Source of the DNA: Bispira polyomma
Lineage: Eukaryota
Assembly: GCA_965649765.1 (NCBI GenBank)
Contig: OZ287752.1
Location: forward strand, 79,670,001-79,734,000
Length of the DNA: 64,000 bases
Direction of reading: 5' to 3'
In this document: piece after piece, positions 958-35,725 of the stretch
Numbering within the stretch: position 1 is the first letter of the stretch
Layout of the letters: each line of letters starts with the position of its first letter
The notes under the pieces: generated by a model
The model's database searches: none
Told to the model about the DNA's origin: nothing
The model's input: only the letters and a program-made list of their open reading frames with translations
Made by a program: the position numbers and the translations under genes

Positions 958-3160
958 TGAAGAAATGAGGAAACCCCTAATACAGGAGTTGTGGAGCTCA
1001 GCAAATGCCCTTCGGATAGCTGCCTTGTGCAAAACGTTAGACAGTTGTGGCGATGTCAACCTTGCTAACCCATCTCCAATACCAAATACACTTTGCATGT
1101 CTGTGAGTAAACATATACCTGCCAGAGTCAAAGATGAACCTTGTTTTGATGACCATGACTTGTTAGACACTAGTGAGGTGGTAAGGCTAGGCAAAGTAAA
1201 TAAACAAACTGGCTTGGAATCAATGTTCAATTGCACATTGAGTAATATATTAAAAGAAGAAAGTGCCAGATTTATTTGCAATAGAGCCAATCCAAATCAT
1301 GCAACTGCTGAAAATGGGGGACTTAGTGACACTGCATTGATTAAAGTAGAATCCATTGAAAAAAACTGGCCTGTATCTGAAAATGGCACAGACATGGCTG
1401 ATGGTGATTCTGATGATACCATAGAATACTTTTCTGATGATAAACTTTCACAGGTGAAGAGCCATGGTAAATTGCAGACTTCTCCTAAGAGAGCAAGAGT
1501 CAGCAAGAATAAAAGTGGACATAAATCAGAAAGAAGAAGTGCTAAAAGTCCACGGAAAAGTATAGATAGTGTGAAGTTGAAACGCACGAGTGTTAAGGGT
1601 GTAAAATTAGAAAGGCACTTAGGAGACATGAAGTCAAAATGTGCTTATTGTGGTATGATATCTTATCACAGAAGAGTAAGAAAACATACATACGAGCAGC
1701 ATTATGATGAGTTTGTGCCAAAAGAATCTGAGGAAACTTCAGATGTTCATTGCAAAAAGCCGTTAAAAATCAGGTGTTTGAGCTGTGGGGAAGAGGTAGA
1801 AAGGCGGCACTATGCAGTGCATTTACTGACTGATCACCCCACTGACACTGTCAGAAAAACCAACCGAGGTAGACACTATAAAGTTAAAGTGGGCTGTTTG
1901 TTTTGTGACATTTCCATTAAGAATCTGAAGTATATGGAACACTTTGAACAGGTACACCCTGAAATGGGTTGTATGTTCAGTGAAACCAAATCAAATGTGG
2001 CAGCATCTAAATTCCTTGATCGTGTGAAGGTACCTGAAATTAAAAGAGTGGAGCATTTGATGATGTTTGCATGTGTCTATTGTGAAACAGATGAAATCAA
2101 AGTTACCTTCGAGGAGTATAAATCACATGTGTCGGAGTGCCATCCTAAGTTTTATGAAGTGAACATTAAGAACAAGCCCAATGTTACTCTTCATGATAAG
2201 ATTGAAACTGGCCTGGCAGAAATAACGGAGAACAAGGAAAAGATAGAAAAATCCAAATATCTTTATATAGATAGGAGTAGATACTTGCCAGAAGTGCCAC
2301 CACGTCCAAAAGAGTATGTCTGCTTCATATGTCAGCAGAAACTGCCTAATAGGAAGGCATACTACCAGCATGTAATGGACCAGCATGGGTTTAAGAAAAG
2401 AAAAACGTTGATGTGCCCATATTGTTATATATTTTTCTCTTGCCATCTGGCCAAAATAAATCATGAGGATGAGGCCCATGCCATTGAGAAATACATGTGT
2501 GAAACATGTGGCAAGGACTTTGTGCGGTCGTCTTCTCTGAAGATACACAAAGAACATGTGCACGTGGGCTATGTAAAGGAGTGCATGTTGAGGTACAAGC
2601 GGCGACCAAAGAACCTGCTGTGCAGCCATTGCGGTTCTCCATTCAAGACCACAACGAGTCTGAAGTACCACATCACAACAAAGCACAACAAGGAGAAGAA
2701 CTTTGTATGTTCCCAGTGTGACAAATCCTTCTCCAATTCCAGTGGACTCAAGAAGCACGAAATGACACACATGAGTGTCCAGAGCAGAAGGTTTTCCTGC
2801 ACGTTCTGCACATACAAAACCAACAGACGCCACGTCATGGAGTACCATCTGAGAATACACACTGGTGAGAAACCGTACAAGTGCAACTTGTGTGATTGCC
2901 GGTTTCGAATTAGTTTGACACTAAGGTGGCATCTGGAAAATAAACATGACATTAAAGAAACTGGTCAGGGAGTCTTTCATAAGTATTACCAGCCTGAACA
3001 TGGGCAGAAAAGTGAGGCAACAAGAATCATAGAGAGCATGTGTGTAGATTCTGAGGAAGATCTAGAAGTACCATTCTCAAGGACCACTGCAGATGATCAG
3101 GACATTGGACCAATGTCTGAGGACTTTGTTTTAAAAGAAGTAGAATTTCCCCAGTTTTAG
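958..3160 (+). CDS. Zinc-finger coding exon, copy 1 (BTB C-terminal helices + 4 atypical + 7 canonical C2H2 fingers)
   Basis: 731-aa ORF (ATG 965) with CxxC..HxxxH fingers and an HTGEKP linker. Preceded by CTGAC branch site (925-929), pyrimidine tract and CAG (AG 956-957); exon opens T-GAA-GAA-ATG (phase 2). Confidence 0.93.
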
Positions 3161-4324
3161 AATTCTTTCATACCTTGACTGACTTTGCAATATAGCTCTT
3201 GGTAATAGGTATTTCTGAACTTTGCATTACATAGTGTTAAAGTTATAATGGTGAAGTAGTTAAATTACTGGTGTCAGTTTTTTAAAATGGAAAGCGTTTA
3301 CAAGTTTGAATGACTAGAATGAGATATATCAGAAGAAAAATTAAATCAAAACATTAACTCATGTGAATCCTATCCCAAACTATGGGTGAATTGACTGTTT
3401 AACCAACCTAACTGACATGTCGATGTGTTAGGCAAGTTATAGTTTATTCTCCCTGAAGTTTATTCTCCCCAAGGTTTGAGTTCCACTAGATTGGCAATAG
3501 TAACTTCAAAACTAAATTGTCAAAGATAGTTGGAAATATGTAATGCTAGCAAAGTAGTTTTAACTAGAATTAAAATTTTTGAATGAAAAGCGGAAACTTT
3601 TTTTTTGAAAAATAGAAAAGCAGAGAGAAACTGGACATAAATATGCAAGCCGTTGATTCGCATTACAAATAGATTGTACACGTGAAGCATTTTGTGAAGT
3701 TCAGTACTTAGTGATATTACCATGGTTGAAGTCATTAGAATAGGTTATATGTGTGTCTTTTAAATCTGCTTGAAAATTAATATTTTAAGTTTGAATATTT
3801 TATATCTAATCTCTTTATTATTTTATCATGGTACATGTATAATCATTTGATAAATGTATTAATGAAGCATGCAAGGGCAATTGCAAGATTAATTGATGGC
3901 GTTATTTTCTATTGATGCCAATTGTAGGTGTGTAAAATATGTTCATCTTAAAACTTGCAGAAATACATAGACCTCAGTGTATGCATACACATATGTGGTA
4001 CACAAGAATAGCCTTTAAAGTAAAACACTGTACATAAACTCACTGCATTTATTGTGTTAATTCCCTTAACATTTGATGAATTGTTAAAGAACTTTCATTA
4101 GATGCTTTTGAGGTTAAAATGTACAATACACGTATAGATAAAAAAAATTAACATTGATTGACGATTGTGGCTTTAGCAAGAATTAAATTAGGGTCCCTTT
4201 AACCACTGGACCAACTCCCTTATTGCCAGGACACAAACCAATAATCCATGTTAGGGGCATCTATACATCAAATGTTTAATATAGATGCAGTTGAAATAAT
4301 TTTTGTACAAAAAATATTGCATGA

Positions 4325-5215
4325 TTGCTAGATCTCTTAGCAGCTATTGATACCATTGACCATGGTTTACTATTTGACACTCTAAAACAGGGGTTTGGAT
4401 GAAAAGGCACCGTCCTTGATTGAATTAGGTCTTCTCTGGCTCTCACAACCCCCAAAATTAAACTGGATCATCCCTTCTCATCCTCCTACAACCTACCTTT
4501 CGAAGTAACCCAGGGGTCATTCCTTTGTCCTCTACTTTTTACCATCAACACGCATCCCCTCAGCACAGTCGTCAAAAATCACGTGTTAAACACCACATGC
4601 TGACAACACTCCAATCTATCTCTCGACCCTCAGAATGCCCACATATTGGTCTGCTTGCTGAATGTCTCTTCTCAGTCCAGGTTTGAATGAATTACTCTTA
4701 ATTGAAATGACATCCTGATAAAATTGAAGTAGCAAGAAACACAGTGAGTACTTAAAATCATTAGTCCCGATTACACTTCTGGGCAATGATTTACAGCCAT
4801 CTGATAGTGTCATGAACCTTGGCGTCACTATGGACACCGCTTTCTCATTTGATACGCACATAAGCAACATTAGTCACTCGTATCACTTTTGTTATATCAG
4901 TGTGGCTAAGTACCTTGCTAGTAGCCGCTTCGACTACTGCTATTCCCTTCTGTTTGAGGTAAAACAGTCTTGAATAAACAAGTTACAGTCCATTCCAAAC
5001 TATCTCTGTGGATTAATTTTTCATCTGGAGATCCATATTGATGTCTCAAAAAATTATTTTGGCTTCCTATTCACTGTCAAATTTTGTTTGAAAAACCATG
5101 TAACCACTTTCAAATCTGTTTTTCCTCAACAGCCCTTCTAACTTGCTGCTCATCTTGCCTTGAGCAACCTTAAAAAGAGAAAGAGGCTTTCTGTGTCCTG
5201 TAAAACCTACCAAGT
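4325..5215 (+). mobile_element. Degenerate L2/CR1-group LINE reverse transcriptase fragment
   Basis: Manual translation gives LLDLLAAIDTIDH..FG*KGTVLD*..VTQGSFLCPLLF..HADNTPIYL..NLGVTMD..WLPIH, matching the LLDLSAAFDTIDH / PQGSVLGPLLF / YADD / HWLP motifs, with stops and frameshifts. Confidence 0.85.
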
Positions 5216-6172
5216 GGTAGCAAATGGGCCGGATCTGGAGTTTTCTCTAGTAACCTGTTTAGTAGTACATGTACTTTGATCTATGGACTTTCACCAGTGT
5301 TTATATAATTATGACCTAATAAATATTATTTGTTCTTCTTTGAAAATAATTATGATTGGTGTCAAAACTAATTAAGAGTTGCTTTAATTTGATTTAACAT
5401 TGGAATGCAGATAAAAGAAATAATGTGTGATTGATGTGCTGTGAACATTAACAGGTAGTTCAATTTGTTAGTTCACTGTGATTACCAATGTTATACATTT
5501 ATATACAATATTGCTGATATAAACTGTTCATATTCACTCTATATATTGAAGTTTCACCAATAATTATAAACTCTCTAACGTGAGAAGATTGTTTAGAAGA
5601 AGTGGTTATCTTAAAAGTGCCCTGATTTAAATGATTTTATTGTGTTACGTTTTGCCAATACTATTGTTGGAGTTTGAATATCCAATGGATGAAATAGAAT
5701 TTTTTTGTCTGCCAACTTAACTTCCAATTGGACCTTCTCCTGACAGACTTTAAAATTCTACTAAAACTTGGGTTTCTGTTATGGCAGATAATTATATATG
5801 ATATCTATGAAAGTAGACAGAGTAGATGGAATGTACTTTGTAAAGTGGAACTTCTATTATCTCCTAGAAATATTTATTTTGTTGAGAGAAGGATCTCTTA
5901 AAAAAGGTAATTATTTATAAAAAAATAAAAACTATGAATTTTTTTTTTTAATGTTTAAATATAACTGAAATAATATAACTGAAATATATTCTATCACACC
6001 ATTTAGTTTTCACAAGCTCAGATGTTTTCAAACAATAAAAAAAATAATCAAATTTAGGGCGAGTGTGAAAGTGAGTTGTTTAAATTACTTATGTCAGTAA
6101 TTTATCGCAGTGGGAGCAGAAGTTCTATTTTATTGAAGTGTTAAGCTCATGTTTCCAAAAGTTACCATAATA

Positions 6173-6958
6173 CAGTAGACTCTCTGTAAGTCGAATATGC
6201 AAGATCCATCAAATATGCGTCGACTTAGGCTAAATTCGACTTATATATTAAGGGGAGGGGGGGGCAGGGGCCGCCCGGAAGAGTGCTAGGTTTGACTAAA
6301 GTTAGCGTGAATGCATGGTAAGTATGGTCGATAATAAGAGATTTCATTAAAAACACTCAATAAACAACATACACTTATTGGTTTATTATCTGAAACAATT
6401 TTTATATACAATTATACTAATTTATCATCAAATAAAACGTAACTGTGAAGATTTGTCAGCAACCCTAATTGCACTTCTAGCAGTTAAAAAGGCGAGATCC
6501 TTTCCTTTGTTGTAAATTCAAATTAGATCAAAGATGGCCGCGCCCATAACGGCTGAAAACATGTCAAATAAAATTGGATTTCTGGTAAGTTAGTGTCTTG
6601 TTTGATGTTTGTAAGTGATCAGATGTTTAAACCCCCCTCAATACACAATATGATACCTCCTTTGTGTGGATTGTTTAACTTTCACAGCATTAAGTCACCG
6701 GTCCATGCCGATAACAATAGACAGCATTAATCCCTTGTTAAACAAATAAGATTGGTGGTTCAAGTTCGAAATATACCTTGAAAAACAGACTAAAAAAGGC
6801 TTTTTGGCCTTTAAAATAGGTTCGATATAGGCCTAAATTTTCGGTTCGAAGTTCGAGCAATACCTTTGATTTTAATAATAAATTGTTGGGACTTGCAATC
6901 TGGTTCGATATGTGCCAAAAATCGAGTTGTACAGAATCGACTTACAGAGAGTCTACTG
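6173..6958. mobile_element. Tc1/mariner (pogo/Tigger-type) MITE, 786 bp
   Basis: Perfect 22-bp TIR CAGTAGACTCTCTGTAAGTCGA, TA on both sides (6171-72, 6959-60). The paralogous empty site lies near 250-340. Confidence 0.9.
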
Positions 6959-7639
6959 TACATGTATTGAGAAGACAAAACCACTGTATCCTGTATCAAT
7001 AAAGCTGAAACTGAATACGTGTAGTAAATTTACTATCCCGAATAATTGGTGGAATGTTCAACTAAATATCAATTAAACATGTACATGTATTTGTTTATGG
7101 TGCAATATAAAAAAATTTCTGCACCAACTGGCATAATTGTGACTTAAATTATGTCAGCATTTAAAATTGTTTGTAGTATAAGACACGAAACTTTCAAAAA
7201 CAAATGTCTTGCTTTATTAAATTTTTGATTGTTACTTGCACCAGTTCAGGGGAAAGCCAAATATTCTAATATTCTCTTTCAGCTTTATGGATCAATATTG
7301 GAATATTTATCACTTAACTCCAGAATTTTTCTAATGTTGATGTAACCAGCTTAAAGATCAGTATAAAAAAATGGTTATTTTAACATGCTATTATTGTAGT
7401 GTAGCTGCATTACATTATTGTCTTAGCAGAACAGCTTATTTATTTGCTTGTTGCACATTTTTACCTGAGTTTAATTATTACAAAATTGTAACTGCTATTT
7501 TGTGTGTGCTTGTTTACATATATACAAAATCACTAAATCCCAACAAATTCTGGAAACTAATAAATCAAATTTTACCCTGAAAGTCTTGTATGAATTCACT
7601 TCAGTACTAATCAAACCCGCTTTTGATAAGTCTCTCTAG

Positions 7640-7920
7640 CTTTCTTTACATGCTGTTTCAAGTGATCTCGTGGGGACTTCCAAGGAGGAATCGTTTTCGA
7701 AATGTCTTATGTTATTTAATATTTATCTAACTTACAAGCACAGCGGAATTACAACTCTGTAAAGAGACCTGCCCAATTTATACCTAAATTTTGATGCAGT
7801 CACCAAGAAACATTTGGAATCGATTCACAGAAATTTTATTATGGATCGAGTCAATACATTGATCTTCTGTCAATTTGTTCCACCACTACCATGTACTATA
7901 CGATGCTAACTTATCTAACC
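7640..7920 (+). mobile_element. Possible eroded LINE ORF2 3' end
   Basis: Segment absent from other spacers; reads RDLPNLYLNFDAVTKKHL..CQFVPPLPCTIRC*, reminiscent of Cys-rich CR1-group C-termini. Weak. Confidence 0.3.
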
Positions 7921-8609: not shown

Positions 8610-10788
8610 TGAAGAAATGAGAAAAACCCTAATACAGGAGTTGTGGAGCTCATCAAATGCCCTTCGGATACCTGCTTTGTGCAGAATGTTAGACAGTTGT
8701 GGCGATGTCAACCTTGCTTACCTATCTCCAATACAAAATGCTCTTTGCACATCTGTGAGTAAACATATACCTGCCAGAGTTAAAGATGAACCTTGTTATG
8801 ATGACCATGACTCGTTAGACACTAGTGAGTTAGCAAGACCAGACATAGTAAATAAACAAACTGGCTTGGAATCGATGACCAATTGCACATTGAGTAATAT
8901 ATTGAAAGAAGAAAGTTGCAATAAAGCCATACCAAATCATGCAACTGCTCAAGATGGGGGACCCAGTGACACTACATTGATTAAAGTTGAATCTTTTGAA
9001 AAGAACTGGCCTGTATCTGAAAATGGCACAGACATGGGTGGTAGTGATTCTGATAATACCATAGAATACTTTTCTGATGATGATGAGAGCGATGGTAAAT
9101 TGCAGACAATTCCTAAGAGAGCAAGGGTCAGCAAGAATAGAAGTAGACATAAATCAGAAAGAAGTGCTAAAAGTCCTCGTAAAAGTGTAGATAGCGCGAA
9201 AAGGAGAACATTGAAATGCAGGAGTGTTAAGGGTGTAAAAATAGATAGGCATTTAGGAGACATGAAGTCAAAATGTGCTTATTGTGGTAATATATCTTCT
9301 CACAGCTTGGTAAGAAGACATACATACGAGCAGCATTATGATGAATTTATGCCAAAAGAATCTGAAAAAACTTCAGATGTTCAGTGCAAAAAGCAGTTGA
9401 AAATCAGGTGTTTAAGCTGTCGACAAGAGGTAGAGAGGCGGCATTATGCAGTGCATTTACTGACTGATCACCCCACTAATACTGCCAGAAAAACTAATCG
9501 AGGTAGACACCATAAAGTCAAAGTAGGCTGTCTATTTTGTGACAGTTCCATTAAGAATCTGAATTACATGGAACACTTTGAACAGGTACACCCTGAAATG
9601 GGTTCTATGTTCAGTGAAACCAAATCAAATGTGACAGCATCCAAGTTCCTTGATCGTGTGAAGGTATCTGAACTTAAAAGAGTGGAGCATATGATGATGT
9701 TTGCATGTGTCTATTGTGAAACAGATGAAATGAAATTTACCTTTGAGGAGTATAAATCACACGTATTAGAGTGCCATCCAAACTTTTATGAAGTGAACAT
9801 TAAGAACATTTATACTCTTCGTGATAAAATTGAAACTGGCCTGGCAGAGAAAACTGAGAACAAAGAAACAATAGAAAAATCCAAGTATCTCTACATAGAT
9901 AGGAGTAGATACCTGCCAGAATTGCCCCCACGTCCCAAAGAGTATGTCTGCTTCCTGTGTCAGCAGAAAGTGCACAATAGAAAGGCTTACTACCAGCATG
10001 CTGTGGACCAGCATGGGTTTAAGAAAAGAAGAACGTTTATGTGCCCATATTGTTATATCTTATTCTCATGCCATCAGACCAAAATGAACCATGAGGATGA
10101 GGCCCATGCTATTGAGAAATACATGTGTGAAACATGTGGCAAGGACTTTGTGAGGTCGTCTTCACTGAAGATACACAAAGAACATGTTCATTTGGGCTAT
10201 GTAAAGGAGTGTGTGCTGAGGTACAAGCGGAAGCCAAAGAACTTGCTGTGCAACCATTGCGGTTCTCCTTTCAAGACCACCAGAAGTCTGAAGTACCATA
10301 TCGCAACAAAGCACAGCAAGGAAAAGAATTTTGTATGTTCCCAGTGTAACAAATCCTTCTCTCATTCCAGTGGACTTAAGAAACATGAAAAGACACACTT
10401 AAGTGTCAAGAGCAGAAAGTTTTCGTGCACGTTCTGCACATTCAAAACCAACAGACGCCATGACATAAAGAACCATCTGAGAATACACACTGAGGAGAAA
10501 CCATATAAGTGCAACTTGTGTGATTGCCGGTTTCGAATTAGTTTGACACTAAGGTGGCATTTGGAAAATAAACACGATATCAAAGAAACTGGTCAGGGAG
10601 TCTTTCAGAAGTATTACCAGCCTGAACATGGGCAGAAAAGTGAGGCAACAAGAATTATGGAGAGCATGTATGTAGATTCTGAGGAAGATTTGGAAGTACC
10701 ATTCTCCAGAACCACTGCAGATGATCTGGACATTGGAACAATGTCTGAGGACTTTGGTCTGAAAGAAGTAGAGTTTCCCCAGTTTTAG
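8610..10788 (+). CDS. Zinc-finger coding exon, copy 2
   Basis: 723-aa paralog (ATG 8617); acceptor AG 8608-8609, phase 2. Small in-frame deletions; linker changed from TGEKP to TEEKP. Confidence 0.92.
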
Positions 10789-10817
10789 TATTCTTTCATG
10801 TCTTGACAGACATTGTA

Positions 10818-14184: not shown

Positions 14185-16372
14185 TGAAGAAATGAGGAAA
14201 CCCCTAATACAGGAGTTGTGGAGCTCAGCAAATGCCCTTCGGATAGCTGCTTTGTGCAAAATGTTAGAGACTTGTGATGATGTCAGCCTTGCTATCCCAT
14301 CTTCAATTCCAAATACACTTTGCACGTCTGTGAGTAAAGATATACCTTGCAGGGTCAAAGATGTACCTTGTAATGATGGCCATAACTTGTTAGACACTAG
14401 TGAGATAGCAAGGCTGGGCAAAGTAAATAAACAAACTGGCTTGGAATTGAAGTCCGATTACAAATTGAGTAATATATTGAAAGAAGAAAGTGCCAGATTT
14501 ATTTGCAATAGAGACATACCAAATCTTGCCACTGCTGAAAATGGTGAACCTAGTGACACTACATTGATTAAGGTAGAATCCTTTGAAGAAAGCTGGATTG
14601 TGTCTGAAAATGACACAGACATGGGTGGTAGTGATTCTGATGATACCATAGAATACTTTTCTGATGATAAACTTTCACAGGTGAAGAGCCATGGTAAATT
14701 GCAGACATCTTCTAAGAGAGCAAGGATCATCAAGAATAGAAGTAAACATGAATCAGAAAGAAGTGCTAAAAGTCCTTGTAAAAGTGTAAAAGGGAGAACA
14801 TTGAAACGCAGGAGTGTTAAGGGTGTTAAAAGGCATTTAGGAGACATGAAGTCAAAATGTGCTTATTGTGGTATGATATCATATCACAGGACAGTAAGAC
14901 ATCATACATACGAGCAGCATTATGATGAGTTTGTGCCAAAAGAATCTGAGGAAACTTTTGAAGTTCAATGCAAAAAGCCGTTAAAAATCAGGTGTTTAGG
15001 CTGTGGGATAGAAGTGGAAAGGCGGCGTTATGCAGTGCATTTACTGACTGATCACCCCACTGATACTGTCAGAAAAACTAATTCTGGTAGACACCATAAA
15101 GTCAAAGTAGGCTGTTTGTTTTGTGAAATCTCCATTAAGAATCTGAAGTATATGGAACATTTTGAACAGGTACACCCTGAAATGGGTTCTAAGTTCAGCG
15201 CAACCATTTCAAATGTGGCAGCGCCTAAGTTTCTCGATCGTGTGAACATTCCTGAAATTAAAAAAGTGGAGCATTTGATGATGTTTGCATGTGTCTATTG
15301 TGAAACAGATGAAATAAAACTCACCTTTGAGGAGTATAAATCGCATGTGTTACAGTGCCATCCTAAGTTTTATGAAGTGAACATTAAGAACATTTCTAAT
15401 CTTCATGATAAGATTGAAAGTGGCCTGGCAGGGAAAACAGAGAACAAGGAAAAGATAGAAAAATACAAGTATCTGTACATAGATAGGCGTAGATACCTGC
15501 CAGAAGTCCCACCACGACCTAAAGAGTACGTCTGCTTCCTGTGTCAGCAGAAAGTTCCTAATAGGAAAGCTTACTACCAGCATGCAATAGACCAGCATGG
15601 GTTTGAGAAAAGAAAAACGGTTATGTGCCCATATTGTTATATCTTATGCTCAAGCCATCACTCAAAATTAAATCATGAGGATGAGGCCCATGCCATTGAG
15701 AAATACATGTGTGAAACATGTGGCAAGGACTTTGTGAGATCATCTTCTCTGAAGTTACACAAAGAACATGTCCATTTAGGCTATGTAAAGGAGTGTGTGC
15801 TGAGGTACAAGCGGCAGCCGAAGAACTTGCTGTGCAGCCATTGCGGTTCTTCGTACAAGACCACCAAAAGTCTGAACTACCATATTGCAACAAAGCACAA
15901 TCAGGAGAGGAATTTTGTATGTTCCCAGTGTAACAAATGCTTCCTACATTCCAGTCATCTGAAGAAGCACAAAATGACACACATGAGTGCTAACAGCAAA
16001 AAGTTTTCTTGCTCGTTCTGCACATTCAAAACCAACAGACGCCATGACATGGAAAGCCATTTGAGAATACACACGGGTGAGAAACCATATAAGTGCAACT
16101 TGTGTGATTGCCGGTTTCGAATTAGTTTAACGCTAAGGTCGCACTTGGAAAATAAACATGATATTAAACAAACTGGTCAGGGAATCTTTCAGAAGTATTA
16201 CCAGCCTGAACATGGGCAGAAAAGTGAGGCAACAAGAATCCTAGAGAGCATGTGTGAGGATTCTGAGGAAGCCCTGGAATTACCATTCTCAAGGACCACT
16301 GCAGATGATCAGGACATTGTACCAATTTCTGAGCACATTGCTCTGAAAGACGTAGAATTCCCCCAGTTTTAG
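14185..16372 (+). CDS. Zinc-finger coding exon, copy 3
   Basis: 726-aa paralog (ATG 14192); acceptor AG 14183-14184, phase 2. Confidence 0.92.
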
Positions 16373-20054: not shown

Positions 20055-22206
20055 TGAAGAAATGAGGAAACCCCTAATACAGGAGTTGTGGAGTTCATCA
20101 AATGCCCTTCGGATACCTGCTTTGTGCAAAATGTTAGACAGTTGTGGCGATGTCAACCTTGCTAACCCATCTCCAAGAACAAATGCACTTTGCATGTCTG
20201 TGAGTAAACATATACCTGCTGGAGTCAAAGATGAACCTTGTAATGATGACCAGGACTCATTCAACACTAATGAGGTAGCAAGGCTAGGCATAGTAAATAA
20301 TGAAACTGGCTTGGAATCGATGTCCGATTGCAAATTGAGTAATATATTGAAAGAAGAAAGTGCCAGATTTATTTGCAGTAGAGCCATACCAGATCATGCA
20401 ACTGCTGAAAATGGGGGACCTAGTGACACTACATTGATTAAAGTAGAATCCTTTGAAAAAAACTGGTCTGTATCTGAAAGTGGCACAGACATGGCTGATA
20501 GTGATTCTGATGATACCATAGAATACTTTTCTGATGATAAACTTTCACAGGTGAAGAGACATGGTAAATTGCATACATCTCCTAAGAGAGCGGGGGTGGG
20601 CAGCAATAGAACTGGAAATAAGTCCGAAAGAAGAAGTGCTAAAAGTCAACGTAAAAGTGTGGATAGCATGAAAAGGAGAACATTGAAATGCAGGATTGTT
20701 AAGAGTGTAAAAATAGGAAGCCATTTAGGAGACATGAAGGCAAAATGTGCTTATTGTGGTATGATATCTTATCACAGGACAGTAAGACAACATACATACG
20801 AGCAGCATTATGATCAGTTTATGCCAAAAGAATCTGAGGAAGCTTCTGAAGTTCAGTGCAAAAAGCCATTGAAAATCAGGTGTTTAAGCTGTGGGGAAGA
20901 GGTAGAAAGGCGGCGTTATGCAGTTCATTTGCTAACTGATCACCCCACTGACACTGTCAGAAAAACTAATTATGGTAGACACCACAAAGTTAAAGTAGGC
21001 TGTTTGTTTTGTGACATTTCCATAAAGAATCTGAAGTATATGGAACACTTTGAACAAGTACATCCTGAAATGGGTTGTATGTTCAGTGATAAAACCAAAT
21101 CAAATGTGACAGCATCTAAGTTCCTTGATCGTGTGAAGGTATCTGAACTTAAAAGAGTGGAGCATATGATGATGTTTGCATGTGTCTATTGTGAAACAGA
21201 TGAAATCAAACTTACCTTTGAGGAGTATAAATCGCACGTGTTAGGGTGCCATCCTAAGTTTTATGAAGTGAACATTAAGAACATTTCTAATCTTCGTGAT
21301 AAGATTGAAACTGGCCTGGCAGATAAAACTGAAAACAAGGAAAAGATTGAAAAATCAAAGTATCTTTACATAGATAGGCGCAGATACCTGCCAGAAGTCC
21401 CACCACGTCCAAAAGAATATGTCTGCTTCCTGTGTCAGCAGAGAGTTCCTAATAGGAAAGCTTACTACCAGCATGCAATAGACCAACATGGGTTTGAGAA
21501 AAAAAAAACGGTTATGTGCCCATATTGTTATATCTTATTCTCAAGCCATTGTTCAAAATTAAATCATGAGGATGAGACGCATGCCATTGAGAAATACATG
21601 TGTGAAACATGTGGCAAGGACTTTGTGAGGGCGTCTTCTCTGAGGTTACACAAAGAACATGTCCATTTAGGCTATGTAAAGGAGTGTGTGCTGAGGTACA
21701 AGCGGAAACCAAAGAACTTGCTGTGCAATCAATGCGGTTCTTCATTCAAGACCACCTGGACTCTGAACTGCCATATTGCAACAAAGCACAATCAAGAGGA
21801 GAAGAATTTTGTATGTTCCCAGTGTAACAAATCCTTCTTACATTCCCGTTATCTGAAGAGGCATGAAAAGACGCACATTAGTGCTAACAACAGAAAGTTT
21901 TCCTGCATGTTCTGCACATTCAAAACCAATATGCGCCATGACTTGGAGAGCCATTTGAGAATACACACGGGTGAGAAACCATATAAGTGCAACTTGTGTG
22001 ATTGCCGGTTTCGAATAGGTTTGACACTAAGATGGCATCTGGAAAATAAACATGATATTAAACAGACTGGTCAGGGAGTCTTTCAGAAGTATTACCAGCC
22101 TGAACATGGGCAGAAAAGTGAGGCAACAAGAATCATAGAGAGCATGTATGTGGATTCTGAGGAAGATTTGGAATTACCATTCTCAAGGACCCCTGCAGAT
22201 AATTAA
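20055..22206 (+). CDS. Zinc-finger coding exon, copy 4 (C-terminal tail truncated)
   Basis: Acceptor AG 20053-20054, ATG 20062; the ORF-track start at 20035 lies in the pyrimidine tract. CAG>TAA stop about 20 codons early; all fingers intact. Confidence 0.9.
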
Positions 22207-24172: not shown

Positions 24173-26375
24173 TGATCAAATGAGGAAACCCCTAATACAG
24201 GAGTTGTGGAGCTCATCAAATACCCTCCGGATACCTACTTTGTGCAAAATGTTAGAGAGTTGTGGTGATGTCAACCTTGCTAATCCATCCCCAATACCAA
24301 ATGCACTTTGCATATCTGTGAGTAAACATATACCTGCCAGAGTCAAAGATGAACCTTGTAATGACGACCATTACTCATTCAACACTAGTGAGGTAGCAAG
24401 GCTAGGTATGGTAAATACACAAACCGACTTGGAATCGATGTCCGATTGCAAATTGAGTAATATATTGAAAGAAGAAAGTGCCAGATTTATTTGCAATAGA
24501 GCCATACCAGATCATGCAACTGCTGAAATTGGGGGACCTAGTGACACTACATTGATTAAAGTAGAATCCTTTGAAAAAAACTGGTCTGTATCTGAAAATG
24601 GCACAGACATGGGTGGTAGTGATTCTGATGATACTATAGAATATTTTTCTGATGATAAAATTTCACAGGTGAAGAGACATGGTAAATTGCAAACAACTTC
24701 TAAGAGAGCAAGGGTCAGTAAGAATAGAAGTAAACATGAATCAGAAAGAATTGCTAAAAGTCCACGTAAAAGTGTAGATCGTGTGAAAAGCAAAACATTG
24801 AAATGCAGGAGTGTTAAGGGTGTAAAAATAGGAAGGCATTTAGGAGACATGAAGTCAAAATGTGCTTATTGTGGTATGATATCTTATCATAGGACAGTAA
24901 GACAACATACATACGAACAGCATTGTGATCAGTTTATGCCAAAAGAATTTAAGGAAACTTCTGAAGTTCAATGCAAAAAGCCGTTAAAAATCAGGTGTTT
25001 AAGCTGTGGGAAAGAGGTAGAAAGGCGGCGTTATGCAGTGCATTTACTGACTGATCACCCCACTGACACTGTCAGAAAAACTAATTCTGGTAGACACCAT
25101 AAAGTCAAAGTAGGCTGTTTGTTTTGTGACATTTCCATTAAGAATCTGAAGTATATGGAACACTTTGAACAGGTACATCCTGAAATGGGTTCTAAGTTCA
25201 GCGAAACCATAATGAATGTGGCAGCTCCCAAGTTTCTTGATCGTGTAAACATTCCTGAAATTAAAAGAGTGGAGCATTTGATGATGTTTGCGTGTGTCTA
25301 TTGTGAAGCAGATGAAATCAAATTTACCTTTGAGGAGTATAAATTGCACGTGTTAGAGTGCCATCCTAAGTTTTATGAAGTGAACATTAAGAACATTTCT
25401 AATCTTCGTGATAAGATTGAAACTGGCCTGGCAGAGAAAACTGAGAACAAGGAAAAGATAGAAAAATCAAAGTATCTTTACATAGATAGGCGCAGATACC
25501 TGCCAGAAGTCCCACCACGTCCCAAAGAGTATGTCTGCTTCCTGTGTCAGCAGAAAGTTCCTAATAGGAAAGCTTACTACCAGCATGCAATAGACCAGCA
25601 TGGGTTTGAGAAAAGAAAGACTGTTATGTGCCCATATTGTTATATCTTATGCTCAAGCCATCACTCAAAATTAAATCACGAGGATGAGGCCCATGCCATT
25701 GAGAAATACATGTGTGAAACATGTGGCAAGGACTTTGTGAGATCATCTTCTCTGAAGTTACACAAAGAACATGTCCATTTAGGCTATGTAAAGGAGTGTG
25801 TGCTGAGGTACAAGCGGAAGCCAAAGAACTTGCTGTGCAGCCATTGCGGTTGTTCGTACAAAACCACAGCGAGGCTGAACTACCATATTGCGACAAAGCA
25901 CAATCAGGAGAGGAAGTTTGTATGTTGCCAGTGTAACAAAACCTTCTTACATTCCAGTCGTCTGAAGAATCACGAAAAGACGCACATTAGTGCTAACAAC
26001 AGAAAGTATTCCTGCACGTTCTGCACATTCAAAACCAACAGACGCCATGACATGGAAAGCCATTTGAGAATACACACTGGTGAGAAACCATATAAGTGCA
26101 ACTTGTGTGTATGTCGGTTTCGAATAAGTTTGACATTAAGGTGGCATCTGGAAAATAAACACGATATCAAAGAAACTGGTCACGGAGTCTTTCAGAAGTA
26201 TTACGAGCCTGAACATGGGCAGAAAAGTGAGGCAACAAGAATCGTAGAGAGCATGTGTGTGGATTCCGAGGAAGATCTGGAAGTACCGTTCTCTAGGACC
26301 ACCGCAGATGATCAGGACATTGGACCAATTTCTGAGGACTTTGGTCTAAAAGAAGTAGAATTTTCCCAGTTTTAG
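24173..26375 (+). CDS. Zinc-finger coding exon, copy 5
   Basis: 731-aa paralog (ATG 24180); acceptor AG 24171-24172; opens T-GAT-CAA-ATG (phase 2). Confidence 0.92.
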
Positions 26376-29138
26376 ATGTCGTTCATGTCTTGACTGACTT
26401 AATAATATAGCTCTTGGTAATCAGTATTTTTGAATATTGTTTTACATAATGTTAGAGTTATAATTATGGTAAAGTTGTTAAATTTCTAGTGTTATTTTTT
26501 GATAAGGGAAAGTGTTTACAAGTTTGAATGACTAGAATGAGATATATAAAAAAAAATCAAAAGTTTAAAACATATGAATCGTATTGGTTCTCAAATAAGG
26601 ATGAATTTACTTTTCATCCATTCTATCTGACATCTCTTGGTTGATTACTCAAAGTTTTGGGAAAGTTATAGTTGATTCTTTTCACCCTGAAGCTATTGTA
26701 GAATGTTGTGAAAGTCTACTTTGCAACAGCTTGCATGATTTGAATAAAAAATACATGCTTCTTTGGACGACGTTTGAGTTCAATAGACTGGCAATAGTAA
26801 CTTCAAATCTAAATGGTCCAAGATAGTTGGAAATATGTAATGCTAGCAAAGTAGATTTTAGCTATAATTAAAATATTATGTCAAAAACAAGAACTCCTTT
26901 TGAATAGTAGCAAAGCAGAGAGAAAGTAGACATACCTACCATCTGCTGGGTTCTTAAGAAATTTAGTTGCAACTTTTGAGGTTTAAATGAACAATATGGA
27001 AAAACATTTAACATTGAGTGACATTGTGGCTTTAGCAAGAATTACATTAGGGTCCCTTTAACCACGGGACCAACTCCTGATCAAAGGCCACAAACCAGTT
27101 TCTCTAGCTTAGGAGAGTCTATTTATTCAATGTTTAATTAACATGTACTTAAAATCATTTTTTGCACAGAAATATTACATGTGGAGTTCTCGCATAGACC
27201 TTTTATTGGATACAAATGCTGTGCATAGATATGTTATACTATCAGTATCTGCAGTTTTCTTTCTAAAAAGTATTGATAAGCTAATATCTCAAGTGGTTGG
27301 GAGCTGTGGTGTAACTTGACACAAGGACATAGCTGAGTCCCCAGATGTGCCATATTTTTTGTGTCGATATAGTTAGGGAGGTTGTTGATATTAGGCTTTT
27401 TCTGTGATTTTGTGTAGTTGTACAGATTCTATATTTTTGACTACTCCGTAGTGATAGATAACATCGGCACAGAAAGAGAGGCATACGAAACCATCAAATT
27501 TATATATCTTACTTCATGAAATGGCTGTATCTATGTGAATATTTAACCTAAATTTTTTTGTTCTGGTTTGACCAGAAAGCTAATTTTTTGTGCTTTTTGA
27601 TAGTTGAAACTGTTTTCAAATTTAATTTATATTATGCAAGATATTATCAGCTGAACTATTCAAGCCAAATTTGCAATAACCAAAAATTGAAAGGAACTCT
27701 ATTGGTTAAATTTGTATAGCCCTAGTTTATTAGCTACTTCTATATATTAAAACCTGGGATTATACAATTTGTGATTGTATTGATAGAATTAAAATACAAT
27801 TTATATTGGCTGAGATGTTTAAAAAAAAGAGATATGGTAAAAAATTTAAATGTTTTGGGTTATATTTATATTTAATAAAGTTTTATATCTCTGTATTTTC
27901 TAAAGCTAGAAATTCAAGGATTATATGTCCAGAAGGAGCAATTAATACACTCTGGGACGCTTTTAACAGAATAAAAATCCATTAAATATTAGCAGACATA
28001 TTTAAAGGCAAAAGATATACACATTCTACAATATGTAAAATACGTACCTTGTCTTCCTGGATCGCAATGAGAAGGCTTAGAATATTGCATCATTTGACAA
28101 AAATATTTGTGTCCATACATAGTGCCCACACAAAAAGGGAGTGGCTGATCTTGACAACGAAAATTTAAAACGATCGCTTAAAATAATAAAAGGTTCAATT
28201 TTTGCCTCCCATGCAAACTCGGCCCCTAATCCTGCATGTCTTGATGGACATGTCCAGCAAATTAGCTTTGATCAAATATCTGCCTTGCAGTTTCGCCTTT
28301 TAACTCTAATTATGGGTTCAAATCTTCAGTCTACTGCAGAATGCATGAGTTAAATTTAGTTGGGCTTTACATCACCTCTAATGGCATAATTATATCTCAT
28401 CACAGTGGGATTCAGGCCATTCTGTTCTTGTTTGTAGATATGATACATATTTCTATACATTAGTTATTGGAATTCAAGATGTTTAATGATCTTTCCATAT
28501 CAACCTATAATGTCTTATATAGTGTATATTTGACTGATATAAATACTGGTAACTGCTAACTGGTATTGCTGCTTGCACTAGATCTGATTATATATTGGAA
28601 CTCACCTAAAATATTGGAAAATATGCATGCACTTAAAATGTTTAATCTATTTTCATTGGTAGTGAATTGAGAATAGTCATTAGTTAAAAATAATGTCCCA
28701 GATATTTGTTCATTTTGTAATCTACAAAATTTTACCGGTTCAAAAGTGTTCATACTGTGCTGATTGTCAGTCATATTTTGTTGAGAAAGCTGATGCAAAA
28801 TGACCATATTTAACTGCTACAAGTTGTACTATCCCATTGTTGACAATTTGGCATATTGTAGCCATTATTGCTGTTTATATCAGTGGAACTGCTATTATCA
28901 GAACATGTTAGGAGAACAAGATTTTGTTTAGATAGAAGACGTTTTATAATTTCTGTTTGACACAAACTTGGGCGAGTGACAATGGAGTTCATAAAAGAAA
29001 TAGTTCTAATATGTTTGTGGTACAATACTAAATATGTCTCTGCTGTAATGACACACATACTTTATTTATAAAGCAAATGTTACTACAACTGTAAAGTCAA
29101 GTTTCTGACTCTTTTGTTTTGTTTATTTCTCTCCTCAG

Positions 29139-31314
29139 TGAAGAAATGAGGAAACCCCTAATACAGGAGTTGTGGAGCTCAGCAAATGCCCTTCGGATAC
29201 CTGCTTTGTGCAAAATGTTAAAGAGTTGTGATGATGTCAACCTTGCTATCCCATCTTCAATTCCAAATACACTTTGCATGTCTGTGAGTAAACATATACC
29301 TGCCAGAGTCAAAGATGAACCTTGTAACGACGACCATGACTCATTCAACACTAGTGAGGTAGCAAGGCTAGGCATAGTAAATAATCAAACTGGCTTGGAA
29401 TTGATGTCTGATTGCAAATTGAGTAATATATTGAAAGATGAAAGTGCAAGATTTATTTGCAATAGAGACATACCAAATCTTGCAACTGCTGAAAATGGGG
29501 GACCTAGTGACACTACATTGATTAAAGTAGAATCCTTGGAAAAAAGCTGGTCTGTATCTGAAAATGGCATAGACATGGGTGGTAGTGATTCTGATGATAC
29601 CATAGAATACTTTTCTGATGATAAACTTTCACAGGTGAGGAGACATGGTAAATTGCAGACATCTTCAAAGAGAGCAAGGGTCAGCAAGAATAGAAGTATA
29701 CACAAATCAGAAAGCAAAAGTGCTAAAAATCCACGTAAAAGTTTAGATCGTGTAAAAGGGAGAACATTGAAAAGCAGGAATGTTAAAGGTGTAAAAATAG
29801 AAAGGCATTCAGGAGACATGAAGTCAAAATGTGCTTATTGTGGTATGATATCTTACCACAGAAGAGTAAGACAACATACATACAAACAGCATTGTGATCA
29901 GTTTATGCCAAAAGAATCTGAGGAAGCTTCTGAAGTTCAGTTCAAAAAGCCATTGAAAATCAGGTGTTTAAGCTGTGGGGAAGAGGTAGAGAGGCGACAT
30001 TATGCAGTGCATTTACTGACTGATCACCCCACTAACACTGTCAGAAAAACTAATCGGGGTAGACACCATCAAGTCAAAGTAGGCTGTTTGTTCTGTGATA
30101 TTTCCATTAAGAATCGGAAGTATATGGAACACTTTGAACAGGTACACCCTGAAATGGGTTCTAACTTTAGCGAAACCAAATCAAATGTGGCAGTGCCCAA
30201 GTTCCTTGATCGTGCAAACATTAAAAGAGTGGATGGTTTGATGATGTTTGCGTGTGTCTATTGTGAAACAGATGAAATCAAACTTACCTTTAAGGAGTAT
30301 ATATCACACGTGTTAGAGTGCCATCCTAAGTTTGATGAAATTGACGTTAAAAAGATTGAAACTGGCCTGGCAGAGAAAACTGAGAACAAGGAAGAGATAG
30401 AAAAAGCCAAGTATCTTTACATAGACAGGAGTAGATACCTGCCAGAAGTCCCACAACACCCCAAAGAGTATGTATGTTTCCTGTGTGAGCAGAAAGTGCC
30501 TAATAGGAAGGCATACTTCCAGCATGCAGTGGACCAGCATGGGTTTAAGAAAGGAAAAATGGTTATGTGCCCATATTGTTATACGTTATTCTCAAGCTAT
30601 CTAACAAAAATAAATCACGAGGATGAGACCCATGCCATTGAGAAATACATGTGTGAAACATGTGGCAAGGACTTTGTGAGATCATCTTCTCTGAAGATAC
30701 ACAAAGAACATGTCCATTTGGGTTATGTAAAGGAGTGTGTGCTGAGGTACAAGCGGAAGCCAAAGAACTTGCTGTGCAACCAATGCGGTTCTTCATACAA
30801 GACCACCTGGAGTCTGAACTACCATATTACAACAAAGCACAATCAGGAGAGGAACTTTGTATGTTCCCAGTGTAAGAAAGCCTTCTCTCATGCCAATGGT
30901 CTCAGGAGACATGAAAAGACGCACATGAGTGCTAACAGCAGAAAGTTTTCCTGCACTTTCTGCACATTCAAAACCAACAGATGCATTGACATGAAGAGCC
31001 ATTTGAGAATACACACGGGTGAGAAACCTTATAAGTGCAACTTGTGTGATTGCCGGTTTCGAATTGGTTTGACGCTAAGGTCGCATCTAGAAAATAAACA
31101 TGATATTAAACAAACTGGTCAGGGAGTCTTTCAGAAGTATTACCAACCTGAACATGGGCAGAAAAGTGAAGCAACAAGAATCCTAGAAAGCATGTGTGTG
31201 GAATCTGAGGAAGATCTTGAATTGCCATTCTCAAGGACCCCTGCAGATGATCAGGACATTGGACCAATCTCTGAGGACTTTGGTCTGAAAGAAGTAGAAT
31301 TTCCCCAGTTTTAG
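29139..31314 (+). CDS. Zinc-finger coding exon, copy 6
   Basis: Acceptor AG 29137-29138, ATG 29146, phase 2; intact fingers, short in-frame deletions. Confidence 0.92.
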
Positions 31315-33528
31315 AATTCTTTCGTGTCTTGACTGACTTAGTAATATAGCCCTTGGTAATCAGTATTTTTGAACATTGTTTACATGGTGTTAGAGTTATA
31401 TTTATGGTAAAGTTGTTTAAATTACTGGTCTTTTTTTATAAGGGAAATAATTTACAAGTTTGAATGACTTGAATGAGACATCAAAAGAAAAACTTAATCA
31501 AAACTTTAAAACATGTGAATCGAATCTGTCCTTAAATAAAGTTGAATTCACTTTTTAACCATCCTAGCTGACATCTGTTTGTTGATTACTCAAAATTTTA
31601 GGCAAGTTATAGTTGATTCTCTTCACCCTGAATCTAATGTAGAATGTTGTGCAAGTCTCCTTCACAACAACTTGCATAATTTGGAGGTTTAAATTGCACT
31701 AAATCAATAATAGTAACTTTAAAACTAAATTGTTTATGATAGTAGGAAATATGTAATGCTAAGAAAGTAGTTTTTAGCTAGAATATAAAACGGAGAGAAA
31801 GAAGAGAGAAACTGGACATAAATATACAAGTCATTAATTTACATTACAAATAAGATGTACATAATCCATTTTGTAAAGTTCACAACTTGTTGATACTATC
31901 TTTGTTTAAGTCACTAGCATACCGGTATTAGGTTATTTATATGTCTTTTAAATCGGCGTTAATCCAAAGAGTTTAAGTTCTAATATTGTATACCTAACCT
32001 GCTCTAAAATAGAATATGCTTGGTGTAATCGTATAATGACTAGATTACTGAAGCCTACAAGGGAGATTGTTTGTGAATTTTTTTGATTAATTTGTAGTGT
32101 CAATTTTAGTTTTGTAAAATGTGTTAAGGTCACCAAAAATACATAGGCATATGCCTATTTTAAAAGTGAAACATAGTGGAAAGACTTATTCCATGCAATA
32201 ATTAATAAATTGCATTTATTACTTGGCCACCTGGTGAGTTCTTAAAGAACTTTTAGCAGCAGCAGGTTTAAATGAACAATATATAAAAATAGTTGACATT
32301 GAGAGACCATTGTGGCTTCAGCAAGAATTAAATTTCGTTCCCTATTATCACTGCATTAACTCCCTTACCGCCACGCCATAAACCAATATCTCACAAGTTA
32401 GGAGCAACGATCCATACATCCATCGAGTCACTAGATGTGCCATATTTTTTTGTGTCTATAGTTAGGGAGGTTGTTGATATTAGGCTTTTTTTGTGATTTT
32501 TTCGGCATGTCCATTCCTAATGTTTGATGGTTTCATTTCGTGTTAGTTTCTGTACCGAGTACCAAACTCCATTGTGCTTTGTGATTCTAGATTTATAAAA
32601 AATTAAATATGAAGGGACTACTGTGTAGTTGTATACATTATATATTTTTGATAACTGTGTAGTGATACAGAACGTCACAACAGTGGAGGCGTATACTAAA
32701 CCATCCAATTCATATATGTTACTTCATTAAATGGCTTGATATATGTGATTATCCACCAGAAGACTAATGTTTTGTGCTGTTCGACAGTTCCAACTGTTTT
32801 CAAATCTCCTGAATATTATGAAGGAATTTGTAAGAAAAATTTGCAACAAAAAATTGTGTTAGATATTTACTACTTGTATGTATTAAAATCTGGGATCACA
32901 CACTTTGTATTTATGTTTACAGAATTAAAATGCAATTAATTTTGTATTAGACATTAAACTAAAAATGATTGTAAAAATCTAAAAGTTGAAATGATTGCTT
33001 ATATTTTTAAGTTCGCCCAATAATTTATGGTAAAATATTTCTATAATAATTGTAGAATTCTAGAATTCCCCTTATTTCCTCAATTTTAAAAAGTACTTCT
33101 AAATAAAATTAGTCTGTAATTTTTTGTTTTGTATAATATATACCAATAGAAAGGTGTACCGATCGACAGGTCATCCAAAAACTATGCAGATCTTAAAGAA
33201 TTTTTTTTTTAAAGTTTTTCTTTTCAACATTACCTTCATTATTTATTTCGGAACTAGATTTTCTTACTGGCATGTACTCTTACACAGAAATACCTGTATT
33301 CATACAGAGGACTGGGAATTTTAGAATACTTCTTTAGGATTATATGAAAATGGCATTTGTGAAAGTACACAATAAGAGGTAACAAATTGTTTAGCTTAAG
33401 TATTCACTTAATTGGAAAATAAAGCACTACTGTACTTGTAGTGCAATGCTAAAATATGTCTGCTGTAATGACACATATTCTGTAAAGTCAAGTTTCTGAC
33501 GCTTTGTTTTCTTTGTTTCTCTCCTCAG

Positions 33529-35725
33529 TGATCAAATGAGGAAACCCTTAATACAGGAGTTGTGGAGCTCAGCAAATACCCTTCGGATACCTGCTTTGTG
33601 CAAAATGTTAGAGAGTTGTGATGATGTCAACCTTGCTATCCCATCTTCAATTCCAAATACACTTTGCATGTCTGTGAGTAAACATATACCTGCTGGGGTC
33701 AAAGATGAACCTTGTAATGATGACCAGGACTCAATCAACACTAGTGAGGTAGCAAGGCTAGGCATAGTAAATAATGAAACTGGCACACCATCATTGTCCG
33801 ATTGCAAATTAAGTAATATATTGAAAGAAGAAAATGCCAGATTTATTTGCAATAGAGACATACCAAATCTTGCCACTGCTGAAAATGGGGGACCTAGTGA
33901 CACTACATTGATTAAAGTAGAATCCTTTGAAAAAAACTGGTCTGTATCTGAAAACGACACAGACATGGGTGGTAGTGATTCTGATGATACCATAGAATAC
34001 TTTTCTGATGATAAACTTTCACAGGGAAAGAGCCATGGTAAATTGCAGACATCTTCTAAGAGAGCAAGGGTCAGCAAGAATAGAAGTAAACATGAATCAG
34101 GAAGAAGTACTAAAAGTCCTCATAAAAGTGTCGATAATGTAAAAGGGAAAACATTGAAACGCAGGAGTGTTAAGGGTGTGAAAGTAGAAGGGCATTTAGG
34201 AGACATGAAGTCAAAATGTGCTTATTGTGGTATCATTTCATTTCACACCGTAGTAAGAAGACATACATATGAGCAACATTATGATCAGTTTATGCCAACA
34301 GAATCTGAGGAAGCCTCTGAAGTTCAGTGCAAAAAGCCATTGAAAATCAGGTGTTTAAGCTGTGGGGAAGAGGTAGAAAGGCGACATTATGCAGTGCATT
34401 TACTGACTGATCACCCCACTGACACTGTCAGAAAAACTGATCATGGTAGACACCTTAAAGTTAAAGTAGGCTGTTTGTTTTGTGAAATCTCCATTAAGAA
34501 TCGGAAGTATATGGAACACTTTGAACAGGTACACCCTGAAATGGGTTCTAAGTTCAGCGAAACCAAATCAAATGTGGCAGCTCCCAAGTTTCTTGATCGT
34601 GTAAACATTCCTGAACTTAAAAGAGTGGAGCATTTGATGATGTTTGCATGTGTCTATTGTGAAACAGATGAAATAAAATTTACCTTTGAGGAGTACAAGT
34701 CTCACGTGTTAGAGTGCCATCCTAAGTTTTATGAAGTGAATATTAAAAACATTTCTAATCTTCATGATAAGATTGAAACTGGCCTGGCAGAGAAAAGTAA
34801 GAAGAAAGAAGAGATAGAAAAAGCCAAGTATCTTCACATAGACAGGAGTAGATACCTGCCAGAAGTTCCACCCCATCCTAAAGAGTATGTCTGCTTCCTG
34901 TGTCAGCAGAAACTGCCTAATAGAAAGGCTTACTACCAGCATGCAATGGACCAGCATGGGTTTAAGAGAAGAAAAACTGTTATGTGCCCATATTGTTATA
35001 TCTTATTTTCAAGCCATCATACCAAAAGAAGCCACGAAGACGAAGCCCATGCTATTGAGAAGTACATGTGTGAAACATGTGGCAAGGACTTTGTGCGGTC
35101 GTCTTCTCTGAAGATACACAAAGAACATGTCCATTTGGGCTATGTACAAGAGTGTGTACTGAGGTACAAGCGGCAGCCAAAGAACTTGCTGTGCAATCAA
35201 TGCGGTTCTTCATTTAAGACCACCTGGAGGCTTAACTACCATATTGCAACGAAGCACAACAAGGAGAGGAACTTTGTATGTTCCCAGTGTGACAAATCCT
35301 TCTTACATTCGGCTAGCCTCAAGCAACACGAAAAGACGCACATTAGTGCAAACAACAGAAAGTTTTCCTGCACATTCTGTACATTCAAAACCAACAGACG
35401 CCATGACTTGGAGAGCCATTTGAGAATACACACTGGTGAGAAACCATATAGGTGCAACTTGTGTGATTGCCGGTTTCGAATTAGTTTGACGCTAAGGTCG
35501 CATCTGGAAAATAAACATGATATAAAACTTACTGGTCAGGGAGTCTTTCAGAAGTATTACCAGCCTGAACATGGGCAGAAAAGTGAGGCAACAAGAATTA
35601 TAGAGAGGATGTGCTTGGAATCTGAGGAAGGCCTGGAATTACCATTCTCGAGGACCACTGCAGATGATCAGGACATTGGACCAATTTCTGAGAATTTTCG
35701 TCTGAAAGAAGTAGAATTTCCCTAG
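33529..35725 (+). CDS. Zinc-finger coding exon, copy 7
   Basis: 729-aa paralog (ATG 33536); acceptor AG 33527-33528, phase 2; CAG>TAG removes the last 2 residues. Confidence 0.92.

Follow-up and report, generated by a model that had tools for sequence, protein, structure and literature searches.

Ten zinc-finger exons behind a split BTB head in the annelid Bispira polyomma: probable alternative ends of one gene, the young ones differing most at DNA-reading residues

A 64-kb stretch of the Bispira polyomma genome (64,000 nt, contig OZ287752.1, positions 79,670,001 to 79,734,000; hereafter the window) contains nine long plus-strand open reading frames (ORFs), each with seven canonical C2H2 zinc fingers (F1 to F7), and it raises two questions: whether these units are genes of their own or parts of one gene, and why the young copies differ at the residues that contact DNA. 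With a tenth copy upstream of the window, the units probably make up one gene with ten alternative finger ends, of which the young ends changed fastest at the contacts of F2, F4, F5 and F6 and would give the isoforms different targets.

In the genome search (150 of 1,173 candidates scored) the family had ten members, all within the array. The young copies are named c1-c7, the older ones c8 and c9, and the copy 5' of the window c0; C5 denotes the contig in genome-wide coordinates, and P0001 to P0135 are proteins of a related species. The finger exons, and one example of the block preceding them, are as follows.

Finger exon c0: start C5:79665741, outside the window (upstream), plus strand; 707 codons, with BTB tail, atypical fingers and seven C2H2 fingers.
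3' splice-site block of c1, as an example: window 914..957, plus strand; branch-point-like motif, pyrimidine tract and AG, nearly invariant before c1-c7.
Finger exon c1: window 958..3160 (acceptor to stop), F4-F6 at 2621-2860, plus strand; helices nearest to those of the relative's orthologue P0001.
Finger exon c2: window 8610..10788, F4-F6 at 10249-10488, plus strand.
Finger exon c3: window 14185..16372, F4-F6 at 15833-16072, plus strand.
Finger exon c4: window 20055..22206, F4-F6 at 21724-21966, plus strand; stop about 20 codons early, most altered contact residues.
Finger exon c5: window 24173..26375, F4-F6 at 25836-26075, plus strand.
Finger exon c6: window 29139..31314, F4-F6 at 30775-31014, plus strand.
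Finger exon c7: window 33529..35725, F4-F6 at 35192-35431, plus strand.
Finger exon c8: window 37493..39923, plus strand; older paralogue, its lineage duplicated in the relative (P0002, P0135).
Finger exon c9: window 46913..50234, plus strand; last and longest, first Met at codon 184.

At the start of every finger exon stands an acceptor (pyrimidine tract and AG), of phase 2 in each case, followed by a two-helix segment resembling the end of a BTB domain (the BTB tail). The tracts before the acceptors of c1-c8 hold 19-20 pyrimidines in 22 positions, and the splice-site block is nearly invariant across c1-c7, whereas the DNA further upstream drifts: c1-c6 have 500-1,200 nt in common, and c7 shares only about 50-120 nt with other copies. 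A stop of its own closes each exon, and hexamers of the form AATAAA or ATTAAA occur within 1.5 kb, weak evidence in A+T-rich DNA. In each protein, four atypical N-terminal fingers lie ahead of the seven canonical ones, with a predicted beta-beta-alpha fold; in the c1 structure model the mean predicted local distance difference test score (pLDDT) is 49, and the canonical fingers are modelled as beta-beta-alpha at a pLDDT of about 60-90. F4-F7 are connected by short linkers and F3-F4 by a long one. In c9, 183 open codons precede the first Met. A haplotype or assembly artefact was rejected on the basis of seven distinct versions with 88-92% identity, differing spacers and no N in the sequence.

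Minor features accompany some of the acceptors. That of c9 lies inside a 37-bp tandem duplication (window 46859-46933), the upstream copy of which is an out-of-frame acceptor leading to a stop after 102 codons. The c9 exon (window 46913-50234) also has an additional N-terminal block of atypical fingers, found in its orthologue P0130 as well. A short motif located 67-97 nt before the acceptors (e.g. window about 845-875) is kept in c1-c7 and absent before c0, c8 and c9.

The putative head of the gene was located by a BTB scan of the genome, as a match about 8 kb upstream of c0, and consists of two exons.

Shared BTB exon 1: C5:79657689-79657877, ATG at 79657716, about 12.2 kb before window base 1, plus strand; phase-0 GT donor, Pfam BTB positions 4-38 (E 1.8e-8).
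Shared BTB exon 2: C5:79659980-79660083, 104 nt, outside the window (upstream), plus strand; phase-0 acceptor and phase-2 GT donor, Pfam BTB positions 50-78.

Against Pfam PF00651, exon 1 scored above the cut-off and exon 2 alone (E 0.026) below it. Exon 1 was the single match in the genome (21 candidates scored), and no second copy of either exon was found in 264 kb around the array. Joined in silico to each acceptor, exon 2 remained in frame in 10 out of 10 cases, with products of 796-1195 amino acids. Against a BTB profile made from 24 such domains in this genome, the joins lengthened the match from position 72 to 96-106 of 110 (whole coverage 2 to 96-106) and scored 62.5-66.1 bits; the score was 56.6 when the tail was left off, and 300 random in-protein chunks in its place averaged 58.1 +/- 1.7. 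Two helices (residues 3-15 and 19-26) are predicted in the tail of the c1 model, and 15-18 of the 26 tail residues are identical in the relative's P0001, the adjoining linker being only about 27-31% identical. The complement of the motif preceding the c1-c7 acceptors was sought in the head region and was absent. Two read runs over the BTB region had flat, DNA-like depth through the introns and are uninformative on splicing. The case for one gene rests on consistency, i.e. the same phase in all ten exons, the conserved tail, the invariant splice block and the lack of an early Met in c9, the gain in score being modest; on this genomic anatomy the ten finger exons probably serve a single BTB gene as alternative last exons and do not form separate genes.

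Given that splicing, the products have a BTB domain at the N terminus and a C-terminal C2H2 array (seven canonical fingers per exon), as in the ZBTB proteins Kaiso, MIZ1/ZBTB17 and ZBTB9. BTB exon 1 resembles the BTB domains of these three and SPOP weakly (PDB; E 4e-4 to 0.03), and the likeness is one of layout with a weak BTB match. We know of no ten-exon array of alternative finger ends among vertebrate-type ZBTB proteins.

Base contacts of a C2H2 helix are made by positions -1, 2, 3 and 6, and the contact set (28 columns, these positions in seven fingers) was fixed before testing. An earlier note, made from the window alone, had listed the helices of F4, F5 and F6 in copies 1-7, and all 21 were recovered exactly in the register -1 to 6, given here in the order c1 to c7.

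F4: TTTSLKY, TTRSLKY, TTKSLNY, TTWTLNC, TTARLNY, TTWSLNY, TTWRLNY.
F5: NSSGLKK, HSSGLKK, HSSHLKK, HSRYLKR, HSSRLKN, HANGLRR, HSASLKQ.
F6: RRHVMEY, RRHDIKN, RRHDMES, MRHDLES, RRHDMES, RCIDMKS, RRHDLES.

The F4-F6 contact fingerprints of the seven copies are all distinct. With w denoting the ratio of nonsynonymous to synonymous divergence (dN/dS), the values for F1 to F7 were 0, 1.57, 0.12, 1.83, 1.89, 0.9 and 0.41, in agreement with the claim that F2 varies too. Constraint is seen in F1, which is also fixed, F3 and F7; variability is greatest in F2, F4 and F5 and lower in F6. F6, called hypervariable, does vary, only less than implied (w 0.9; Asp in 6/7 at position 3, Ser in 5/7 at position 6). 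Near-fixity of F3 and F7 holds for RSSSLK (6/7) and ISLTLR (5/7), with close forms in c8, c9 and c0, and fails at position 6 of F7, which is split between Trp (four copies) and Ser (three). To call the copies near-identical was an overstatement, c1-c7 being 79-87% identical in amino acids and 88-92% in nucleotides. The proposed concentration of change at contacts was borne out by a count of 32 additional amino-acid states, where random non-Cys/His finger columns averaged 16.3 (p 2.5e-4, 20,000 draws). By helix position, w was 0.23 (-1), 0.57 (+1), 1.6 (+2), 0.96 (+3), 0.69 (+5) and 1.0 (+6). Absent from the earlier note is the first atypical N-terminal finger, whose helix is variable at positions 3 and 6.

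Selection was tested on c1-c7, seven sequences and hence low power either way, with codon models that we implemented ourselves (GY94 with F3x4 and empirical posteriors; branch proportions kept fixed in M7/M8), unvalidated against PAML. Overall w was 0.37, and an approximate test placed w below 1 on every one of the seven terminal branches (0.26-0.47, p<=0.0011 each), the mark of purifying selection. With gene-wide branch lengths, contact w was 0.90, compared with 0.28 in the finger scaffold (p 2e-8) and 0.39 in disordered parts (p 7e-6); when two finger segments were each given their own tree and lengths, the values were 0.69 for contacts and 0.22 for scaffold (p 4e-8). The rate at contact residues is about three times that of the finger scaffold, and the check set beforehand, higher dN/dS at contacts than elsewhere, came out as expected with either treatment. 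The contacts of F1, F3 and F7 jointly had w 0.14. For the F2/F4/F5/F6 contacts, which were chosen after seeing the data, w was 1.5 (p 0.029) with gene-wide branch lengths. Two features undercut this value: the alignment is a mosaic in which segments yield different trees (p 5e-4 in the incompatibility test), and synonymous divergence (dS) is raised in the finger array (0.36 vs 0.27 overall); with local trees, w over these 16 codons was 1.06 (p 0.77 vs 1).

Site models were borderline; on the whole exon they gave p 0.097 for M1a/M2a, 0.024 for M7/M8 and 0.016 for M8a/M8, and on the fingers only 0.13, 0.036 and 0.034, respectively. The top three M8 sites among about 210 finger codons were all contacts (F4 +2, 0.97; F2 +2, 0.86; F5 +3, 0.73), with multi-nucleotide changes at F4 +2 and F5 +3, a pattern suggestive of positive selection at three candidate contact codons. 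A peak of synonymous divergence at F4-F6, the mark of resisted gene conversion, was not significant (p 0.08; scan-corrected 0.16), and of 21 pairs, four had a single conversion tract at nominal p<0.05 and none after correction. Fourth in the whole-exon site models was a codon outside the fingers, in the basic stretch that separates atypical finger 2 from finger 3 in c1-c7 (alignment column 304), with five residue states.

In the relative, the family proteins P0001, P0002, P0130 and P0135 and the SIK orthologue P0008 are each encoded on a 1,095,274-nt contig, and P0134 on short contigs; the synteny of the SIK kinase with the finger array is probably kept. In B. polyomma, the SIK-family kinase exon (C5:79624614-79627319) is upstream of the BTB head, with best named matches in the annelids Capitella and Paralvinella; the genome also has matches to erythrocruorin linkers, in keeping with an annelid host. 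A search for zf-AD, taken as an arthropod marker, gave no match, which says little either way. All five relative proteins start in or just past the BTB tail, and in none of the five is the BTB head in the same ORF. In the tree, P0001 is sister to c1-c7 (support 95), P0002, P0135 and P0134 group with c8 (99), and P0130 with c9 (100). One c1-c7-like protein and no c0 orthologue were found in the relative, a search result that is no proof of copy number, and the grouping hints at an expansion of different exons in each of the two species. Among 36 metagenome loci with DNA context, at most 34% identical, none matched the atypical-finger profile of the family, which had only five matches among all proteins retrieved.

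The unduplicated c9 and P0130 differ at 0/28 contact and 11/179 scaffold positions. Pairs of c1-c7 differ at 33% of contacts vs 14% of scaffold on average, and the relative's own duplicates, P0002 and P0135, at 7 of 12 F4-F6 contacts and at none of eight F3/F7 contacts. Since the contacts of c9 are unchanged and those of both c1-c7 and P0002/P0135 are changed, F4-F6 change follows duplication in both lineages. In comparison with P0001, c1 differs at 4/12 F4-F6 contacts and c2-c7 at 6-11/12, and c1 seems to have retained the old specificity. The c8 copy differs from its relatives at 7-9 of 12.

We favour as the probable explanation a single ZBTB gene that would pick one of ten last exons, each bringing its own stop and 3' end. 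Every isoform would then have a common BTB core completed by the exon's own last two helices, which may tune pairing. BTB dimerisation is established for ZBTB proteins, and the isoforms would presumably dimerise in the same way. Given the short linkers within F4-F7 and the long one that sets F3 apart from F4, the main module for reading DNA is probably F4-F7, bound to a single site in which the nearly constant F7 would be the fixed part and F4-F6 would alter adjacent bases. After duplication, new exons would keep the fold while their contacts are freed and, at a handful of codons, probably driven to change; the most likely force is relaxed constraint on the duplicated exons, joined by positive selection at few codons (F4 +2, F2 +2, F5 +3). 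The young ends differ most at DNA-reading residues, and therefore one gene probably reads several DNA sequences.

Several results weigh against this explanation. We infer the splicing of exon 2 to any of the ten acceptors from genomic anatomy. The gain in join score is small per copy, the best random chunk (67.7 bits) and the best shuffled tail (71.8) both exceeding every real join, and a Pfam search of tails alone gave no match in 4/4. In docking/selector comparisons of intron 2 with the 200 nt before each acceptor, none of ten convincingly beat all controls (16 control regions; best rank p 0.06, c8 and c9). An in-frame ATG lies within three codons of the acceptor in c1-c8 and at codon 8 in c0, owing to which BTB-less products are possible. 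On the side of selection, contact w of 0.90 is not above 1 (p 0.53), and tree-free dN/dS against local dS was 0.56 (0.32-0.90) over the full contact set, with 0.94 (0.59-1.45) at F2/4/5/6. Under a mosaic-tree null without w>1, 11 of 87 simulations reached the observed M1a/M2a statistic of 4.04, the only statistic simulated. The c9/P0130 contrast (0/28 vs 11/179) is not significant alone (p 0.37), c9 being slow overall, and old paralogues have no contact excess (contacts 50-57% vs scaffold 44-53% different).

Drift is a possible though doubtful alternative, according to which the duplicated exons are partly redundant and the F2/F4/F5/F6 contacts are free to change (w about 1) with the fold kept and no useful new targets gained. 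The w of 1.06 over the 16 codons, the bootstrap interval including 1 and the higher local synonymous divergence are as drift would have them; the constraint on the F1, F3 and F7 contacts in the same copies, and the fact that every copy is intact, under purifying selection and with a fingerprint of its own, argue against it.

An arms race, the reading offered by the earlier note, is unlikely. Positive selection would here keep altering F2/F4/F5/F6, each copy silencing a new transposon family in the manner of KRAB-ZFPs. In the cited part of PMC10547256, KRAB-ZFP and zebrafish FiNZ-ZNF clusters arise by tandem duplication and their base-contacting residues change fastest, the signature also found here (contact w 0.69-0.90 vs 0.22-0.28, p<1e-7). 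To this can be added the nominally significant M7/M8 and M8a/M8 tests, the multi-nucleotide changes at F4 +2 and F5 +3, the post hoc w of 1.5 and the parallel F4-F6 change in the relative's duplicates. Of the diversifying selection that the note suggested, the faster contacts and the M7/M8 result (p 0.024-0.036) stand, and w>1 is not established, as M1a/M2a gave p 0.10-0.13, w falls to 1.06 with local trees and the signal is within the mosaic null. KRAB had no match in c1, c8 and c9 at E<=0.01, and the head upstream is BTB; the array also differs from the KRAB-ZFP and FiNZ-ZNF clusters in that its units are probably exons of one gene and its seven canonical fingers are fixed in number.

Production of the same proteins by another route is likewise improbable: distal exons would be reached via trans-splicing from internal promoters, or by stepwise or recursive splicing, and not in a single cis-splice, which in the longest case, that of c9, would span about 57 kb. 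Ten strong acceptors in competition would suit such a route, and mod(mdg4) isoforms arise by trans-splicing (PMC13490949, in excerpt). Against it, the exons all share one strand and follow in order, no GT directly follows the acceptors, and there is no room for coding linker exons because the BTB profile is continuous across the junction. Very unlikely are separate tandem genes with their own promoter or spliced leader, starting BTB-less at the ATG behind the acceptor and keeping the BTB tail as a relic, for which the ATG at codon 2-3 in c1-c8 and the 500-1,200 nt shared upstream of c1-c6 speak, and against which stand one head for ten tails, the acceptor phase common to 10/10, the tail conserved across species, the absence of shared upstream DNA in c7 and of an early Met in c9.

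A single gene with ten alternative ends would resemble lola and mod(mdg4) of Drosophila, in which one BTB head is followed by many alternative ends (PMC13490949 and PMC4208683, in the parts cited), the likeness here being one of genomic anatomy, with 10/10 exons fitting. As far as the excerpted text of PMC11426971 goes, there are 20 isoforms of lola, of which 17 have C2H2 ends that differ, and BTB domains of the Tramtrack (TTK) group carry an N-terminal FxLRWN motif, the group not being found outside arthropods; for mod(mdg4), the portion of PMC13490949 used gives at least 30 isoforms. The motif is absent from BTB exon 1 and the host is an annelid, hence the gene is not of the Tramtrack group. 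Further differences are that a portion of the BTB fold is itself encoded by the variable exon, and that the ends are 700-1,100 codons long with four atypical and seven C2H2 fingers, seven of them being young duplicates. A literature search, in which subscription journals are poorly covered, returned no report of BTB/finger alternative exons in annelids or polychaetes, or of selection on lophotrochozoan tandem fingers.

Fast contact-residue change among finger duplicates is already known, and the lola/mod(mdg4) design is described from arthropods. What the array may add is that the duplicates are probably exons of one gene, which would open new DNA specificities without a new promoter or effector domain. 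Seven isoforms on one scaffold, with near-fixed F3 and F7 and natural variation in F4-F6, form a ready series for studying specificity change after duplication, and the same series suits the question of whether non-vertebrate finger proteins chase transposons. A bolder version, rather unlikely as it stands, is a KRAB-ZFP-like adaptive repertoire within one annelid gene, with finger exons born by duplication behind the shared split BTB head (a different exon in each species), F4-F6 re-tuned by positive selection, and isoforms pairing via BTB and aimed at fast-changing DNA such as transposons; if true, ten ends could yield up to 55 dimers. ORF-only gene predictors would annotate the locus as ten BTB-less genes.

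Other BTB-finger loci were observed elsewhere in the genome. At C3:101915321-101935537, a BTB exon and a finger exon with GT donors are followed by two finger exons that are 35% identical and each have a stop, making this a possible second alternative-ending gene; loci related to it lie at C1:38.62-38.68 Mb and C3:73.61 Mb. Two nearly identical finger ORFs of 1,164 codons were identified 30 Mb apart (C1:10869770-10873261 and C1:41291194-41294685), with a partial BTB exon near each. Within the window, downstream of c9, a DIRS-like retroelement (55310-61392, plus strand) has gag-like, reverse transcriptase (RT)/RNase H and tyrosine recombinase ORFs, the RT frame being broken by two in-frame stops, and a 169-bp tandem repeat is present in 7.3 copies at 62565-63783.

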